64,000 nucleotides of DNA from Pseudomonadota bacterium (GTDB lineage Bacteria; Pseudomonadota; Gammaproteobacteria; Burkholderiales; Burkholderiaceae_C), in NCBI GenBank assembly GCA_021819435.1, contig JAKARB010000014.1:19085-83084 (forward strand), in the 5' to 3' direction. The position numbers and the translations under genes were made by a program. Each line of letters begins with the position of its first letter. The stretch's first letter is position 1. This document shows positions 3,476-64,000 of this stretch, piece by piece. The notes beneath the pieces are model-generated. The model made no database searches. It was not told the DNA's origin and saw nothing but the letters and a program-made list of their open reading frames with translations.

Positions 3476-4018
3476 ATGCGCATGTCCCCTGACCTGTCGA
3501 TCACCGACCTGCTGAGCCAGGCGCAAGCGGGCGATCAAACCGCACTGACGCGCCTGCTGAGCGAACTTCAACCCGACATCCGCCGCTACGCGCGCCGGCA
3601 ATGCCACCGGGCCTCCGTGCTGGAAGACGTGGTGCAGGAGGCGCTGATCGTCGTCTACCGCAAGGTGGGGCAGGTGCGCAGCGCGCAAGCACTGGGCGGC
3701 TGGCTGCTGACCGTCGTCACCCGCCTGTGCATGCTGCCGGCGCTGATGCTCAGCCGGGGCATCGAGGAGCTGAGCGACACCGACGAGGCGAAGCGGTTCG
3801 CGGCGGTGCCGGTGGACGACCTGCGCATCGACCTGGCGCGGGCCATGGAGTCCCTGCCCGCCACCCACCGCGAAGTCGTGCTGCTGCGTGATTTCGAGGA
3901 GTTGACGATCAACGAGATCGCCACGCGCCTGGGCATCACCCGCGAAGCCACAAAAAGCCGGCTGCACCGCGCGCGCTGCCTGCTGCGTGAGTACCTCGTC
4001 AACCAGGAGGCGGCATGA
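3476..4018 (+). CDS. ECF RNA polymerase sigma factor
   Basis: Region 2 (EDVVQEAL) and region 4 (REVVLLRDFEELTINEIATRLGITREATKSRLHRAR); GGAGGAG RBS before ATG 3476. Confidence 0.9.
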   Translation: MRMSPDLSITDLLSQAQAGDQTALTRLLSELQPDIRRYARRQCHRASVLEDVVQEALIVVYRKVGQVRSAQALGGWLLTVVTRLCMLPALMLSRGIEELSDTDEAKRFAAVPVDDLRIDLARAMESLPATHREVVLLRDFEELTINEIATRLGITREATKSRLHRARCLLREYLVNQEAA

Positions 4019-5083: not shown

Positions 5084-6037
5084 TCACACAGCCAGCGCCG
5101 CCAGCAAGCCCTTGAGCTTCTCTGGATTGCGCTGGATGTAAAGCGCCCCGATGCGGCCCGGCTCGTCCACCGATGGCGCCAGCACCATGGCCTGCACGAG
5201 GCGTCCGCCCTCGAGGTCATCGAAGACCAGGCAGCCAGGCATGCCGTTGAGCCAGACGGCCTCCAGGCGCCAGCCCTGGCTGGCTGGCATGCGCGCGAAA
5301 CCGATGAAGGCGCGGGCGATGCGTTCGCCGCCTTGCAAGGGCCTGGGCACGGCGCTGACCACGCCGCCGCCATCGGCCAGCATCAGCGCATCGGCGCTGA
5401 GCAATTGCGCCAAGGCATCGACATCTTGCGAGCGCACGGCCTGGCTGAAGGCTTGCCACAGCCTGTGCCCATCGGCACGCGTGACCTCGCGGCGCGGCGC
5501 CTCTTCCTTCACTTTTCTGCGAGCGCGGCTGCTGAGTTGCCGGCAGGCGGCCGGACTGCGTCCCAGGTGCTCGCCGATTTCGCCGAAGTCGAGGTCGAAC
5601 ACGTCGTGGAGCAGGAAAGCGGCCCGCTCCAGCGGAGACAGGCGCTCAAGCGCAAGCATGAGGGCCACCGACACGTCCTGAGCGAACTCGGCCTGAGACT
5701 GCGGATCGGGGGCGGTCTTGCCAAAAGCCTCGTCGTCCAGCCAGGGCTCGGGCAGCCAGACGCCGACGTAATGCTCGCGGCGAGCGGCGGCCGAACCCAG
5801 CCGGTCCAGGCACAGGTGCGTGACCATGCGGGACAAGAACGCGCCCGCGTGCCGGACTTCGGCCTCGTCCTGCTCGGCCCAACGCAACCAGGCCTCCTGC
5901 ACGATGTCCTCGGCCTCGGCCACCGAGCCGAGCATGCGGTAGGCCAGTGCGCGCAAGGCGCGGGCGTGCTCGCGCTGGTAGCGCCGGGCGCGTTCGGCCT
6001 GGGCTTCGGCCGGGTTTGGCGGGGTGGACTCGGTCAT
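5084..6037 (-). CDS. sigJ: ECF41/SigJ-type sigma factor with C-terminal SnoaL-like extension
   Basis: YRMLGSVAEAEDIVQEAW, YVGVWLPEP, DGGG and RNPEKL motifs typical of ECF41. Confidence 0.9.
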   Translation of the reverse strand: MTESTPPNPAEAQAERARRYQREHARALRALAYRMLGSVAEAEDIVQEAWLRWAEQDEAEVRHAGAFLSRMVTHLCLDRLGSAAARREHYVGVWLPEPWLDDEAFGKTAPDPQSQAEFAQDVSVALMLALERLSPLERAAFLLHDVFDLDFGEIGEHLGRSPAACRQLSSRARRKVKEEAPRREVTRADGHRLWQAFSQAVRSQDVDALAQLLSADALMLADGGGVVSAVPRPLQGGERIARAFIGFARMPASQGWRLEAVWLNGMPGCLVFDDLEGGRLVQAMVLAPSVDEPGRIGALYIQRNPEKLKGLLAALAV

Positions 6038-6157
6038 GCGGGGATCAGTCTGGTCAGGGCGCTCGTTGCCTGTCGCGGCCAAGTCGGCGCGAGGTCACCG
6101 CCATGAACCTCGGCGTGATGGACAACGGGCGGCGAGCCGGACGGCAACAAGGCGGCC

Positions 6158-7120
6158 TCAGTTGGCGTGCGAACCGGGCAACCCACGCCAAGGCGGCGCC
6201 GGGATGCGCTCGGTTTCCCCCGGGACTGGTGCGAACCGGCCTGCGGCCCAGTCGGCCACCGCCTGCTCGATCAAGGCCGGATCGTGGGAAACGAAGTTCC
6301 ACCACATGCGCACCGGCTGGGCCAGGGGCTGTCCGCCGACCAGCACCAGGCGCGCCCCGTGCTGACCGGCCTGCAAGACCACCGCTTCGCCAGCAGGCAG
6401 CACGGCCATGTCGCGCGGCGCCAGCACTTCGCCATCCACGGTGAGGGCATCTTCGGGGCTGAAGATCGCTTGTTCTTCGGCCAGCGGCGGCAGGGTCCAG
6501 CTCGTGCCGGGCGGCAGGGTGATGTCCAGGTAAAGCGTGGGCGACGCGGTGCGCACGGGGCTGCGCACGCCGAAGGCCTCGCCCACCAGCACGCGCACTG
6601 ACACGCGCACCGGCGACTCGCTGCCCGATGGGCCCGACCCGCCCGCGTCCAACGTGACGTGCGGCAGGTCTGCCGCCGCAACGTGCTGAAACGAGGGCTC
6701 ACAGCGGGCCTGATCCGGCGGCAGCGCCACCCACAATTGCAGGCCATGCAGGCGGCGCGGGTGGCCGCGCTCGGCCTCGGGCACGCGCTCACTGTGCGCC
6801 ACACCCCGGCCCGCCACCATCCAGTTGATGGCACCGGGCGTGATGGTCTGCTGCGTGCCCAGGCTGTCGCGGTGCAGGAAGCCGCCTTCGAAGAGGTAGC
6901 TCACCGTCGCCAGCCCGATGTGGGGATGGCAGCCGACATCGGTGTCCAGCTCGGGCGGCAAGGTCACCGGCCCGAAGTGATCAAAAAAAATGAATGGTCC
7001 GACCGAGCGTTTCGCCGCTGCGGGCAGCACCCGGCGCACGGTCAGGGCGCCGGCCAGGGTGGTCTCGTGCCCCTTGAGGCGCAAAAAACGATCCCTTGCG
7101 GGCGAATCGGCGGCGCTCAC
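6158..7120 (-). CDS. Pirin family protein
   Basis: GPFIFFDHFGP, HPHIGLATVSYLFEG, HRDSLG, WMVAGRGVAHSE. Confidence 0.95.
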   Translation of the reverse strand: MSAADSPARDRFLRLKGHETTLAGALTVRRVLPAAAKRSVGPFIFFDHFGPVTLPPELDTDVGCHPHIGLATVSYLFEGGFLHRDSLGTQQTITPGAINWMVAGRGVAHSERVPEAERGHPRRLHGLQLWVALPPDQARCEPSFQHVAAADLPHVTLDAGGSGPSGSESPVRVSVRVLVGEAFGVRSPVRTASPTLYLDITLPPGTSWTLPPLAEEQAIFSPEDALTVDGEVLAPRDMAVLPAGEAVVLQAGQHGARLVLVGGQPLAQPVRMWWNFVSHDPALIEQAVADWAAGRFAPVPGETERIPAPPWRGLPGSHAN

Positions 7121-59722: not shown

Positions 59723-61066
59723 ATGCCCAACGCGCCTCGCATCCTCATCGTTGGCGGCGGTGTCGCTGGGTTGACGCTGGCCACGCACCTCGGGGACCAC
59801 TTCGGGGAGCACCTCGGAGACCACCCCGGCCGCCACCGCCCGCATCGCAACCAAGGCCACGCCGAGATCACGCTGGTGGACCGCAGCCCCACCCACCTGT
59901 GGAAGCCGATGTTGCACACCATCGCAGCCGGCACATGGGATGTGAGCCAGCAGCAACTCAGCTACGTGGCCCATGCCTCGGCACATCGCTTTGGTTATCA
60001 CATCGGCGGCCTCGCGGGCGTGGACACCGCCTTGCGGCAGGTCACGCTCGCGCCGCTGATCGGGCCCGACGGCGTTGAATTGGTGGGACAGCGCAAGCTG
60101 GTCTACGACGTGTTGGTGCTGGCCGTGGGCAGCCGCGCCAACGACTTCGGCACACCCGGCGTGATGCAGCACTGCCACTTCATCGACAGCCAGGCGCAGG
60201 CCGAACGCTTCAACGCCGTGCTGCGCGGGCGCCTGCTGCGCAGCGTCGTGCAGGACGAAACACTGCGCGTGGCGATTGTGGGCGGCGGGGCCACGGGCGT
60301 GGAACTGGCGGCCGAACTCTGCAGCATGCTCGACACCGCCAACAGCTACGGCAACGGTGCATCGCACATCCGCGAGCGACTGCGCCTGACGCTGCTCGAA
60401 AGCGGGCCACGCATACTCACGGCCTTTCCGGAGCACGTGTCGCGCTCCAGCGCGCAGCAACTGCAACGCCTGGGCGTGGAGTTGCGGATGGGCGCGAAAG
60501 TGACCGCCGCCGAGCTGGAAGGCTTCCGGCTGGCCGATGGCAGCCTGGTGGCGGCCGACCTGATGGTGTGGGCCGCCGGCGTGGTGGCCGAAGGCACGTT
60601 GGGCGACGACACCGGCTTGCCGCTCACGCGCTCACGCCAGGTGGTGGTGGGCCCCAACCTGCAAAGCCCGGCTGATGCCCACGTGTTCGCACTCGGAGAC
60701 TGCGCCAGCCTGACCCCGGCCGGCCGCGACAAGCCCCTGCCCCCCACCGCCCAAGTGGCCAACCAGCAGGCGCTGCACCTGGCGCGCCACCTGCCGGCCT
60801 GGGTGCTGCACGGCACCCCCGTGCCGCCCTTTGTGTTCCGCGACCTGGGCGCGTTGGTTTCACTCAGCGAATACAACGCCTTCGGCACCCTGGGCAAGTT
60901 CGGCTTCCTCAAAGGGCTGTTCGTGCAAGGCACCTTCGCGCAACTCAGCCATGCCTGGCTGTACCGCAAGCACCAGATCGGGCTGCACGGGGTTTGGCAC
61001 ACCTTCGTGATGTGGCTGGCGGAGCGGCTCAATCGGCGGGTTAAGCCGAAGATTCGGTTGGGGTGA
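59723..61066 (+). CDS. ndh: Type II NADH dehydrogenase
   Basis: IVGGGVAG, WKPMLH, IVGGGATGVELAAEL, ALGDCA, PPTAQVANQQ. Confidence 0.9.
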   Translation: MPNAPRILIVGGGVAGLTLATHLGDHFGEHLGDHPGRHRPHRNQGHAEITLVDRSPTHLWKPMLHTIAAGTWDVSQQQLSYVAHASAHRFGYHIGGLAGVDTALRQVTLAPLIGPDGVELVGQRKLVYDVLVLAVGSRANDFGTPGVMQHCHFIDSQAQAERFNAVLRGRLLRSVVQDETLRVAIVGGGATGVELAAELCSMLDTANSYGNGASHIRERLRLTLLESGPRILTAFPEHVSRSSAQQLQRLGVELRMGAKVTAAELEGFRLADGSLVAADLMVWAAGVVAEGTLGDDTGLPLTRSRQVVVGPNLQSPADAHVFALGDCASLTPAGRDKPLPPTAQVANQQALHLARHLPAWVLHGTPVPPFVFRDLGALVSLSEYNAFGTLGKFGFLKGLFVQGTFAQLSHAWLYRKHQIGLHGVWHTFVMWLAERLNRRVKPKIRLG

Positions 61067-61083
61067 GGGGGCGACGCCGCCCA

Positions 61084-61362
61084 TCACCGCAGCTCGCGGG
61101 TGTGCCACAAGCGCAAGATCCAAATCTCGTTGCCGCTGGTGAGTTCGTACCGCATCTCGTGGTCACCGACCAAGATGTAGCGAACCTCGCGAGGCTCGAA
61201 CTCCGTGAGCTTCGTCCCGATGCGAGGCTGCATCAGCAGCAAGTCGGGGCCAGCGGTCAGCCGCTGCACCACTCGTGCAGCAGCTTGGGGGTTCATCGGA
61301 CGCAAGAACTCATGCAGCCGCCCCAAGTCGCCAAGGGCGGCGCGGGTCCATTTGATCGTCAT
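61084..61362 (-). CDS. RelE/ParE family type II toxin
   Basis: IKWTRAALGDL.RL, P.IG, YEMRYE, IWILRLWHTRE. Confidence 0.88.
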   Translation of the reverse strand: MTIKWTRAALGDLGRLHEFLRPMNPQAAARVVQRLTAGPDLLLMQPRIGTKLTEFEPREVRYILVGDHEMRYELTSGNEIWILRLWHTRELR

Positions 61363-61628
61363 TCAGGCAACCGCCCGGGCTGGTCCGTGCTCAACGACGC
61401 CGCCCAGGCCTTCACGTCATCGTGGCTCACGCCGTTTTGGGCATCCACATCTCCCAGCGCCTCGATCGTCATTCGGTGACGCTCGGCCTCTCTTTCCACA
61501 TAGGCCGCCAAAGCCTGCTTGAGCACCCAACCTCGGGAGCGCTCAAGCTTCGCCGCCAGTTGGTCAACCTGATCGGCCAATGGAAGGGGCACATGGGCGG
61601 TCATCACACGGGTCTCGGGGGAAGGCAT
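61359..61628 (-). CDS. CopG/RHH antitoxin
   Basis: VMTAHVPLPLADQVDQLAAKLERSRGWVLKQALAAYV; ATGA overlap with the toxin. Confidence 0.88.
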   Translation of the reverse strand: MPSPETRVMTAHVPLPLADQVDQLAAKLERSRGWVLKQALAAYVEREAERHRMTIEALGDVDAQNGVSHDDVKAWAASLSTDQPGRLPE

Positions 61629-61658
61629 GAATCACTCCTAATCACTTTGAATCAGTCT
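61629..61658 (-). promoter_or_regulatory. Three TGATT repeats at 10-bp spacing upstream of the antitoxin (candidate RHH operator)
   Basis: Minus strand GACTGATTCAAAGTGATTAGGAGTGATTC then ATG. Confidence 0.5.
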
Positions 61659-61679
61659 AACGGAGCACACACGGTAAAC

Positions 61680-61859
61680 ACAACACCTTCGGCACCTTGG
61701 GGCAAGTTCGGCTTCTTCATGGGGCTGTTCTTCGTGCAAGGCGCCTTCGCGCAGCTCAGCCGTGCGTGGCTGTACCACGAGCACCAGATCGGGCTGCATA
61801 GGGTTTAGCGCACCGTTGAGATGTGGCTGGCGGAGCGGCTCAATCGGTAGGTGAAGCCG
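61680..61859 (+). pseudogene. Decayed copy of the ndh C-terminal coding region
   Basis: Translates to NTFGTLGQVRLLHG.../FVQGAFAQLSRAWLYHEHQIGLHRV*, matching the ndh end. Confidence 0.85.
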
Positions 61860-62259
61860 GTTCATTGCCGTCATCCTGACGCAGCACATGCCCTGGGCTG
61901 CTGAGCGCTCTGTGCGAGGCCTTGCGTTGACCGCTTTTAGGCGGTTTAATTGATGGCAACAAGATGTAATCAGGGGGCGAATGCCATGCGAATTAAAAAC
62001 TTGCCGATATCGCGCCGCAAAGGGCGGCGCTATAGGTCGACGTCTTCGTTGAATATGGATTGGCCTATTAGTTAAGGCCACGCGCAACATACGCCGCGCC
62101 CACACAATAAATCAAGGAAATGAATTGCGCCAATCCATCCCTTCGGTCACACGCCCGGCAGACTGCAATACCGAAATGTGGCCATATGTGACCTCCATAT
62201 CTAGCCAGAAATTGCCGCACGTATACAATTATGGCTACAGGCGAACACAAACCACTGAC

Positions 62260-62278
62260 GTATAAATTGCAGTTAGAT
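62260..62278 (+). mobile_element. attI-like integron recombination site / start of the first cassette
   Basis: GTATAAA-TTGCA-GTTAGAT (L box, 5-bp spacer, GTTRRRY core); the core is the exact reverse complement of the downstream attC R'' ATCTAAC. Confidence 0.65.
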
Positions 62279-62315
62279 TTATGCAGCAACACATTCTCAT
62301 TCAACCAGGAAAAAA

Positions 62316-63053
62316 ATGAGCGAAATGGTCTTCTGTCGCGCATGCGGCAAACAATTACACAACACGGCCCCCATCTGCCCACATTGCGGAGCGCCACAGA
62401 GATTGGGAAAGAGCCTAAAGAGCAAAACAGCAGCAGCAGTTTTAGCAATATTCTTGGGCGGCTTTGGCGCGCATAGATTTTATTTGGGGAAATGGTGGGG
62501 CGTCTTCTATCTTCTGTTTTGCTGGACAGGCATTCCTGGCGCAATAGCGTTAATAGAAGGCATTGTATTTGCATTCACAAACATTGAAAAATGGGATGCA
62601 AAGCATAACAATGGAATTCCGTCTGGCGAATCAGGCGCAGGAACAGCCGTTGTCATTGTTGCCGCAGTGGCTGGAAGCATATTCATTATCGGAATACTTG
62701 CTGCAGTTGCCATTCCAGCATATCAAGACTACGTAACACGAGCAAAAGTATACGAAGCAGTGTCAGTCATCAATCAAGCCACGCCAGTCGTTGGAGAATA
62801 CATTGAGGCCAACCATCAAGTCCCTCCCTCGCTAGAGGTTGCTGGCTTCACAAAAACACTTCCTCCTTCCATTGACAGAGTTTCCATTAACCAACGCTCT
62901 GGAGAAATTCTAGTCACCCTTAAAGGAAGCGCATCGATCGCCGGCAAGTCGTTTTCAGTGCTACCCACGGCCGACACTTCGAATCATATTTCATGGCGCT
63001 GCTCAAGCGAAACACTGCCAAACAATAGCCTTCCACAGAATTGTCGGCAATAA
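62316..63053 (+). CDS. Cassette gene: Zn-ribbon + TM2/NINE + type IV pilin globular domain fusion
   Basis: CRACG...CPHCG; KSKTAAAVLAIFLGGFGAHRFYLG; IGILAAVAIPAYQDYVTRAKVYEA...WRC...C; AT-rich. Confidence 0.85.
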   Translation: MSEMVFCRACGKQLHNTAPICPHCGAPQRLGKSLKSKTAAAVLAIFLGGFGAHRFYLGKWWGVFYLLFCWTGIPGAIALIEGIVFAFTNIEKWDAKHNNGIPSGESGAGTAVVIVAAVAGSIFIIGILAAVAIPAYQDYVTRAKVYEAVSVINQATPVVGEYIEANHQVPPSLEVAGFTKTLPPSIDRVSINQRSGEILVTLKGSASIAGKSFSVLPTADTSNHISWRCSSETLPNNSLPQNCRQ

Positions 63054-63153
63054 ATCTAACTGGCGGTTCAACGCGGACGCCAACACTGGCCAAGGCCAGC
63101 GTTGGTGCCCTGCGCGCCTCGCGCTCCGGCGCCGGTTAACCTGGGCGTTATAC
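63054..63153 (+). mobile_element. attC integron cassette recombination site
   Basis: R'' ATCTAAC, 5-bp spacer, L'' GTTCAAC ... L' GTTAAC, 6-bp spacer, R' GTTATAC; two extrahelical bases and GC-rich internal stems. Confidence 0.9.
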
Positions 63154-63183
63154 CTCTTCAACGAAAACTGAGCGTCAGGGAAT

Positions 63184-64000
63184 ATGTCAAACCCAAAAAT
63201 CACCAAACTAATCATTAAAAATTTTGGCTGCATTGGCCCGCAAGGGGTGTCTATCGATATCGACAAAATTGTTGTATTGGTAGGCGCAAACAACGCAGGA
63301 AAAAGCACGATCTTAAGAGCGTTCGAGGTTGTGGCGGATTGCCTGAAGCTCGAGCAAGATGACTTTCACAATCGACAGGTAGTTGCAGACAATTTTCCTG
63401 ATATCGAAATCCACTCGATCGTCACTCAAGACAACAAGCCAGGAGATGAATGGTGCCAGCTGCTGCCTGACGGAACATGGCTTATCAAGGAAAAGTGGAC
63501 ATGGAATGGAATTGGGACCGAGCCCAAGAGGGTAGGTTTCAATGTCAAGATCGATAGGTGGGCTCAAACCGGCGACAAAGAGCTTATGCCGTGGGGGACA
63601 AACAATGTTGCAAAATCCAGAAGACCTAAACCCCATCGAGTAAACACGTTTGACAACCCTGAGGTTCAAGCAAAAGCCATCACAAGCTTGCTTAAAAGCC
63701 TTTTAGAAAACGATATTAAAAATATAAAGACGAATGAGACAGATGAACTGTCTAGGTATGACGCAATCGTCAGCAGCCTAAAAGAGCTGAGAGCAGACTC
63801 CAAGAAAATTCAGCAAGCAGGCATTGCAGACATCCAAACTCAGGCCAATCTAATACTTGAGCAAATATTCCCAAACTATACAATGAAGGTCATTGCGCCA
63901 GAAAGCACCGCCCCAATTGCAATTGATCTGCTCGGAGAGGAGTTCGGATTGGAGGTCGGCGCCACTGGGGGCCTTCCTTTCCTCTGGAGAAGCAAGGCAG
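63184..64000 (+). CDS. OLD/AAA_15-family ABC ATPase (ATP-dependent nuclease-like), second cassette, truncated by window end
   Basis: Manual translation open to the end: MSNPKITKLIIKNFGCIG...LVGANNAGKSTILRA (Walker A); not in the ORF track because there is no stop codon. Confidence 0.8.
   Translation, partial: MSNPKITKLIIKNFGCIGPQGVSIDIDKIVVLVGANNAGKSTILRAFEVVADCLKLEQDDFHNRQVVADNFPDIEIHSIVTQDNKPGDEWCQLLPDGTWLIKEKWTWNGIGTEPKRVGFNVKIDRWAQTGDKELMPWGTNNVAKSRRPKPHRVNTFDNPEVQAKAITSLLKSLLENDIKNIKTNETDELSRYDAIVSSLKELRADSKKIQQAGIADIQTQANLILEQIFPNYTMKVIAPESTAPIAIDLLGEEFGLEVGATGGLPFLWRSKA

Follow-up and report, generated by a model that had tools for sequence, protein, structure and literature searches.

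A probable integrase-less fragment of a Burkholderiales chromosomal-integron cassette array directly behind ndh, with a toxin-antitoxin cassette ending in an attI-type site

The right-hand end of a 64,000-nucleotide stretch of DNA (the window; contig JAKARB010000014.1 of assembly GCA_021819435.1, positions 19,085 to 83,084), which comes from a bacterium of the Burkholderiaceae_C, very probably holds a fixed, integrase-less fragment, approximately 4 kb in length, of the cassette array of a chromosomal integron, lying directly after the stop codon of ndh. In integrons, the tyrosine recombinase IntI recombines the folded bottom strand of an attC site with the double-stranded attI site, or with another attC, at the sequence G|TT, and the six bases that close each R' box of a cassette array are part of the next cassette, and are hence complementary to the R'' of that cassette. 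The first-pass annotation of this DNA had proposed a CALIN (clustered attC sites with no integron-integrase), or an integron that had lost its integrase, and the CALIN reading was borne out by a match to an attC model and by the lack of an integrase gene (intI) nearby. The best reading of the fragment is that of a piece which broke away from, or was left by the erosion of, a Burkholderiales chromosomal array, and which is fixed in two or more strains; the type of array is, as far as sequence can tell, the one seen in Aquabacterium, Ideonella, Rubrivivax, Acidovorax, and bacteria related to them. Read from the left, the fragment would be made up of four elements, namely, a toxin-antitoxin (TA) cassette with an attI-derived 3' site, a remnant of 200 bp, cassette 1, and a cassette bearing a gene of the OLD family (cassette 2). 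The downstream sequence was taken from contig DAHVNH010000016.1 (L001) of the metagenome-assembled genome (MAG) GCA_027319445.1, which reaches 10 kb past the window (window coordinate = L001 coordinate + 52315), and the metagenome runs X1 (the source of the MAG), X2, X3, and X4 were used for the comparison of depths and alleles. The locus has an identical arrangement in two independent metagenomes.

The complete site of the fragment, attC1, occupies positions 63054-63153 on the forward strand, and is a canonical attC by its sequence, in a variant of a Burkholderiales attC family with a short variable terminal structure (VTS). It reads ATCTAAC-TGGCG-GTTCAAC ... GGTTAAC-CTGGGC-GTTATAC, that is, R''-spacer-L'' ... 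L'-spacer-R'. The R'' (63054-63060) fits RYYYAAC, and the R' (63147-63153) is off GTTRRRY at one R position, a departure that is frequent in hybrid R' sites. The L'' is one base longer than the L', which leaves an extrahelical base when GGTTCAAC pairs with GTT-AACC, while the spacers, TGGC(G) and (C)TGGGC, are unequal and non-complementary; in the family alignment, the L box is paired in 99% of cases, and column 16 is unpaired. A covariance model was built from 41 distinct copies of the family (131 extracted), with the window's own site left out, and it matches exactly 63054-63153 on the forward strand, over its full length, with 100.3 bits (E 4.6e-29), while nothing in the rest of the window scores above 12.3 bits. 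The attC that had been claimed here, with spacers of 5 and 6 bp and extrahelical bases, thus stands, and the outcome of the covariance search is in its favor, with a model that is specific to the family and is not the generic attC model of IntegronFinder. Recombination of the folded bottom strand of attC1 by IntI is predicted from these features.

The family itself is widespread, and exact copies of the 20-nt core GGTTCAACGCGGACGCCAAC occur in more than 119 stretches from the Burkholderiales and Rhodocyclales, frequently with several copies on one contig; the genera include Aquabacterium, Ideonella, Rubrivivax, Acidovorax, Zoogloea, Thauera, Methyloversatilis, and others. The consensus of the 131 copies is GCCTAAC TGTCG GTTCAAC ...VTS... 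GGTTAAC CTGGGC GTTAGGC, and the proposed structure is 94% paired in the 41 distinct copies, versus 18-44% when the partners are slid by one to three columns; the variable stems also show compensatory changes. In four loci (L081, L292, L070, and L320), the sites form same-strand arrays directed away from integron integrase genes, which were identified by NCBIfam in L081, for example (TIGR02249, 451 bits), and in L292 (protein P0134, 468 bits). Short variants of 67 and 85 nt in related arrays are detected by the model at 25-50 bits, and a collection of plasmids returned a single match to the family, in Aquabacterium olei. No Rfam family matches attC1, Rfam holds no attC family, and the minimum-free-energy fold of the single attC1 sequence did not recover the R/L pairing, so that folds were not used as evidence. 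As a separate observation, the last attC in seven loci (L013, L024, L025, L029, L039, L081, and L102) lacks the GTTRRRY end and runs into ...GGTTAACCTGGGC|TACAAGGGCTTCCCC..TGTCAAGCAA, a stretch that is conserved across genera and also occurs at one loose end in run X4, and which may represent the conserved end of arrays, or else an element that has inserted at R'.

The lack of an adjacent integrase, also claimed by the first-pass annotation, was confirmed by a search (tblastn) with three verified IntI proteins, which found nothing in the window or in the 10 kb downstream of it, and the Pfam labels of the called genes likewise include no intI near the locus. There is thus no intI adjacent and divergent to an attI, as there would be in a complete integron, and a relaxed search for a remnant of the gene over 61000-62400 and the whole window returned only noise, with a best E value of 0.27 (in 61000-62400). 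An intI contig with 81-86% DNA identity to the intI of L070 is nevertheless present in both X1 and X2, at depths of 57 and 127, respectively, in comparison with 67-69 and 141-150 for the locus, which gives an X2/X1 ratio of approximately 2.2 for both, and further attC-bearing contigs are found at genome-like depth. The matching depth of intI in the two metagenomes makes it probable that a complete integron is present elsewhere in the genome. A class-1-type intI that is also found in X1 and X2 (on L081 at 3606-3669, with loose ends ...LKVGGAGVRS) has an X2/X1 ratio of 0.44, and belongs to another organism, as its depth does not track that of the host. Proteins P0134 and P0135 were considered as the IntI of the host and rejected, given that they do not come from the right samples.

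Cassette 1 is delimited by the complementarity rule. The R'' of attC1, ATCTAAC (63054), is the exact complement of GTTAGAT (62272), and each of the two heptamers occurs only once in the window, so that cassette 1 runs from 62273 to 63147 on the forward strand (875 bp), with an open reading frame (ORF) at 62316-63053 (245 aa), followed by attC1. An R'' of this sequence is rare, being found in three of the 96 sites of the family, and in the arrays that were fetched, the R' of one site is the reverse complement of the R'' of the next in 21 of 25 neighboring pairs, which upholds the cassette boundaries as they had been drawn. The protein has a zinc-ribbon and TM2 and pilin domains (Pfam TM2 4e-17, Pilin 5e-12), and a guess from these domains would be a membrane-anchored, pilin-like protein. 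It has 584 relatives at E < 1e-10, and the closest homologues examined (65-76% identity) are ordinary chromosomal genes among housekeeping genes, without an attC. The closest of all, which is chromosomal (L207, 76% amino-acid identity; 5815-6900 versus window 62130-63200), shows a similarity at the DNA level that begins approximately 40 nt ahead of the ATG and extends as far as the stop codon, at which point the attC follows in the window, and this pair could bear on the making of cassettes.

The second cassette begins at 63148 on the forward strand and is cut by the end of the window at 64000, ending at the equivalent of position 65085. Its gene, which starts at 63185, is that of an OLD-family ATPase-TOPRIM nuclease, and an intact homologue of 610 aa in a cassette of Uliginosibacterium paludis (L007) is recognized by PADLOC as Old (9.7e-89) and by Pfam as AAA_15 plus an OLD-like TOPRIM. 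The two cassettes have 95% DNA identity starting exactly at G|TTATAC (T63148), while the attC sites that precede this G|TT are similar at the family level only, which is direct evidence of mobile cassettes exchanged between genera. In the window, a deletion of one nucleotide in a run of G after 63966 (L001 11651) splits the ORF into 286 and 262 aa, so that both domains are present in this genome, although not in one intact protein. The ORF is intact in L007 and in X2; the extra G is present in X2, whose contigs carry the locus at a depth of 150, as well as in X3 and X4, and it is absent in X1. The difference between X1 and X2 marks the frameshift as a strain polymorphism.

The counterpart of cassette 2 in L007 ends in a complete attC. 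In the present locus, the corresponding site, attC2, starts at L001 12695 and matches L007 up to ...GTTGGTGCCCTA at L001 12770 (window-equivalent 65085), beyond which the two sequences are unrelated, so that it keeps the 5' 76 nt, with L' and R' missing. The model matches it with 68.5 bits (L001 12695-12824), with a poorly aligned 3' half and GTCGCCT in the R' position. The locus thus has two same-strand attC matches 1.9 kb apart, the second of which consists of the 5' 76 nt only, and no further attC was found by the model in the 8 kb past attC2. The first-pass expectation that the array continues beyond the window proved right as far as the end of cassette 2, but the array goes no further than approximately 1.1 kb beyond the window, where its last attC lacks L' and R', with none after it. 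The next six genes, from a MAPEG gene to an ORF of 262 aa, are separated by spacers of at most 50 bp or overlap, and are followed by a convergent gene for a TonB receptor. As an observation in its own right, these six same-strand genes (L001 12771-16165), which encode a MAPEG protein, a GNAT acetyltransferase, and four unannotated ORFs (201, 92, 177, and 262 aa), have no attC and a G+C content of approximately 60%, versus 67% for the genome, and may represent a separate acquired block.

On the left of the fragment, the TA cassette ends in a spacer and an attI-type (ΔattI-like) site, which together occupy 61879-62071 on the forward strand, with the site itself at 62030-62080. A direct-repeat (DR)-like box, CTATAGGTCGAC, is found at 62030-62041, and a simple site, TGGCCTATTAG|TTAAGGCCA, at 62061-62080, with the crossover equivalent at G62071|T62072. 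Positions 61918-62083 align with the spacer between intI and attI in the complete integrons L292-L297, with 64% identity over 171 columns, and the local score of 39 compares with 10.4 ± 1.4 (maximum 19) for 500 dinucleotide shuffles (z = 21). The counterparts in L292 are the DR-like box GTTAGGTCAAC and the simple site TGGTCCATTTCCAG|TTAGGCCA, which are colinear with those of the window, with 19 nt between box and site, and as L292 and L293 diverge right after the G|TT, this must be their crossover point. An earlier comparison of the upstream region with 119 attC loci and 80 intI loci had shown no similarity; the homology came to light only with L292-L297, and the earlier negative is a sampling effect.

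The same attI-type region follows the TA pair in L305, L317, L320, and L321, with four different sequences after CCAG|TTAGGC. The complete integron of L320, in which the TA unit is cassette number three, has an IntI that is 83% identical to that of L070, and its own, differently arranged attI beside intI. The order attC-ORF-ΔattI is found in L305, L317, L320, and L321, and the window is colinear with them except that the upstream attC is missing and the left end is fused to ndh. A genome scan with the 19-mer CTTTTAGGCGGTYTAATTG gave 16 matches, with approximately nine expected by chance, of which only that in L305 is real.

The first-pass annotation had placed an attI-like motif, TAAA-N5-GTT, closer to cassette 1. 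The string is indeed present, at 62262-62274, and the G|TT junction there is real, with no attC beside it, but the motif alone is not long enough for a test, its likeness to attI1 is not above chance, and the demonstrable attI-type site lies 200 bp to the left. The AT-rich composition that had been noted upstream of cassette 1 is real, as the G+C content, which is 0.67 to the left, is 0.46-0.49 between 61936 and the end of the window, and the cassettes may be expressed from this AT-rich DNA.

The body of the TA cassette covers 61067-61667, with its genes on the reverse strand, and so reversed relative to the array. These genes are parE (61084-61362; Pfam ParE_toxin, 5e-14) and a gene for an RHH antitoxin (61359-61628; Pfam RHH_1, 2e-9), and the 5' region of the pair lies at 61629-61667. 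Homologous pairs, with 73-87% amino-acid identity, were found in nine contigs, one from Aquabacterium parvum (L305) and eight from metagenomes (L315-L322), and in eight of these the R' of an attC directly precedes the pair (L305, L315-L320, and L322), while L321 is cut inside the RHH gene, with its left boundary out of sight. When an insertion of 211 nt is removed, window 61086-62097 is colinear with L305 2993-3790 (76% over 815 columns), which indicates that the TA pair and the attI-type site form a single cassette, and that the ndh stop codon marks the start of the array. The decayed ndh copy and the TA pair reported at the place of intI are both there, but the pair is not an unrelated occupant, being an array cassette that stands behind attC sites in other contigs.

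The insertion (61668-61878, forward strand) lies in the spacer of the TA cassette, flanked by the 8-nt repeats ACGGAGCA (61660-61667) and ACGCAGCA (61879-61886), and it is absent from the homologous cassettes of L305, L317, L320, and L321, which have one copy of the repeat. Most of it is the decayed copy of the 3' part of ndh (61668-61859), which contains stop codons on translation, is 79-90% identical, by segment, to 60861-61048, and shows the repeat families D1, D5, and D6 at a spacing of 807-811 nt. The insertion looks like a templated or repair-type event, copied from ndh approximately 800 bp away, rather than a transposon. The left end of the TA cassette is itself truncated, and is joined to ndh no more than 17 nt from the native stop codon of that gene, with the first ~30-55 nt, including the left G|TT boundary, missing, and the intact ndh keeps its native C-terminus, ...VKPKIRLG*, as its homologues do. 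Both ends of the array, at ndh/TA on the left and inside attC2 on the right, are illegitimate junctions that were not made by IntI, from which it follows that the block as a whole would be immobile.

Within the block, the only sites that look competent in sequence are the attI-type G62071|T62072 and the attC1 G63147|T63148, and IntI supplied in trans, probably encoded elsewhere in the genome, is predicted to excise 62072-63147 as a circle of 1,076 bp. This circle would include, in addition to cassette 1, the AT-rich segment of 200 bp (62072-62272, forward strand) that lies between the attI-type crossover and the cassette, and which ends in the G of GCAG|TTAGAT. Its initial ~35 nt are similar to a start that is common among cassettes, and is seen in several of those of L305 and L081, and a promoter scan gave a weak promoter-like match at 62202-62229. 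No cryptic attC was found in 62072-62271 by the covariance model with its filters off, by folding, or by eye, and this stretch has no hairpin (z = -0.4), no credible ORF, and no similarity among 200 related loci. The clean G|TT and the perfect complementarity to R'' argue for a joint made by IntI at 62272, and it can be hypothesized that a secondary site inside an older cassette recombined here with the attC of that cassette; imprecise IntI events of this kind have been described (10.1101/2022.09.11.507474).

A number of points weigh against the CALIN reading. With neither L' nor R', and GTC where GTT is expected, attC2 falls short of the structural definition of an attC, and a strict count would leave one complete attC and one attI-type site. 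The segment 62072-62271 and the junction at 62272 do not follow from this reading, and the family-specific model could miss an attC of a very different type. Nor was an empty site found, as the nearest relative of ndh among the species-representative genomes (in Aquabacterium, 75% identity) is not syntenic, and look-ups of the exact protein gave the same arrangement only, so that the way in which the fragment arrived is inferred.

Given this, other origins of the locus have to be considered. It is unlikely that a complete integron once stood at the ndh locus and lost its intI by deletion, leaving 62030-62080 as the attI of the platform itself. The homology of 61918-62083 to the spacer adjoining intI in L292-L297, in the right orientation, would fit such an origin, and the start codon of intI in L292 lies 124 nt past the start of the homology, a position that in the window falls in rearranged DNA. 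The same region is, however, attached to the same TA pair within the arrays of L305, L317, L320, and L321, and in L320 it lies three cassettes from the true intI-attI; the window has this TA pair colinear with the region, so that no local platform is needed. In addition, no remnant of intI was found at E < 0.27, and the conserved intI-proximal motif of L070, L292, and L320 (CTGGCAGAGGCG...TCTTCCC) is absent.

An insertion of cassettes 1 and 2 by an IntI from elsewhere at a secondary genomic site (attG-type, GWT) is quite improbable, even though the G|TT of the left junction (GCAG|TTAGAT) is clean and has no attC to its left, intI is present at genome-like depth in both metagenomes, and this route has been proposed for two-cassette CALINs, the commonest class (10.1101/2022.09.11.507474). 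The DNA to the left of the junction is AT-rich and integron-derived, with an attI-type site and a cassette-start motif, rather than host DNA, and at the right end there is an attC broken off within its variable stem, rather than an attC joined to host DNA at G|WT, so that an event of this kind would have taken place, at most, inside an older array and not in the host chromosome. It is hardly credible, finally, that the repeats belong to another class, such as terminators or elements resembling repetitive extragenic palindromes (REP) or miniature inverted-repeat transposable elements (MITE), which happen to flank genes. The variable stem does hold a hairpin and a run of T that resemble a terminator, and the R/L pairing is indeed missing from the minimum-free-energy fold of attC1 alone, but there is hardly any variation in R'', L'', L', and R', the spacers of 4-5 and 5-6 nt are unpaired, neighboring sites are complementary, the arrays are directed away from verified intI genes, and cassettes are shared exactly at G|TT.

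A CALIN is defined as two or more attC sites that share a strand and are separated by less than 4 kb, with no intI or intI pseudogene nearby (4-10 kb), and approximately half of the replicons that bear CALINs encode IntI elsewhere (Cury et al. 2016, PMC4889954), while no intI pseudogene is found in 95% of CALINs, most of which are small (10.1101/2022.09.11.507474). The locus agrees with this in its two same-strand attC matches, the lack of intI or a pseudogene within 10 kb, its small size, and the probable presence of IntI elsewhere in the genome, and its cassettes have no counterpart among resistance cassettes. It differs in that the second attC lacks its 3' half, and in the presence of an attI-type site, which the definition does not foresee. 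The attC family, the TA cassette, the attI-type sequence, and the orientation of the cassettes are shared with the sedentary chromosomal integrons of the Betaproteobacteria with homogeneous attC sites (L070, L292, L320, and L081), from which the locus differs in having neither intI nor the intI-proximal part of attI, and in its two broken ends, between which three or four elements remain.

The TA cassette is comparable to the ΔattI-type or "unusual" gene cassettes, which were reportedly described by Partridge in 2009, in that the place of the attC is taken by a stretch derived from attI, which ends in G|TT and is followed by different cassettes in different arrays. The order attC-ORF-ΔattI is known from the mobile integrons of class 1 and class 2, and its occurrence in chromosomes has only been speculated upon (PMC12901181). 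The attI piece of the present cassette differs in being long (~190 nt, with a DR-like box) and of environmental Burkholderiales origin, and in its toxin-antitoxin cargo and its place in chromosomal arrays; its activity in recombination is predicted. Phage-defense genes have been found in integron cassettes (10.1101/2024.07.02.601719), and cassette 2 shares with the class 1 OLD nucleases (P2 Old; PADLOC "Old") a single-gene protein of ABC-ATPase plus TOPRIM, here in the form of an integron cassette, from which it differs in the frameshift of the gene in this genome; its role in phage defense is predicted.

An integrase-less fragment of an array is, by itself, a matter of routine annotation, and represents a kind of element that is common and already described. 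The locus serves to illustrate the construction of such a fragment, with its illegitimate ends, a cassette shared at 95% identity with Uliginosibacterium, and a phage-defense gene polymorphic for a frameshift between two strains, and only the TA cassette, in which a long attI-derived site replaces the attC in at least five environmental arrays, is mildly novel. It is conceivable, if rather doubtful, that the ParE/RHH cassette with its ~190 nt of attI is a self-stabilizing "portable attI" that is spreading among environmental Burkholderiales integrons. Such an element would plant a second functional capture site wherever it lands, in arrays or in integrase-less fragments, and cassettes 1 and 2 would in that case have been taken up downstream of the site of the TA cassette, and not at the attI of a platform.

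A few further observations were made on the TA cassettes and on ndh. In a second lineage of TA cassettes (L315, L316, L318, and L322), another long site is found approximately 260 nt after the RHH gene, ...GTTAGGCGGCG...GGCCTCACTTTTGAGGYCTAC ATTGCG|TTAGGC, which does not belong to the attC family and has no link to intI among the loci compared; it may be another attI-derived site. The junction at 62272 was considered as a site of this type (TATAAATTGCAG|TTAGAT versus CTAAATTGCG|TTAGGC in L315, 13 of 14 nt), which was not relied on, as its score is not above that of shuffles. In Aquabacterium parvum, the array is interrupted by an apparent fragment of an insertion sequence (IS) transposase ORF (L305 1441-2055, judged by eye), and the 5' part of ndh in the window (59785-59829) contains three tandem 12-nt repeats that encode HLGDHFGEHLGDHPG.

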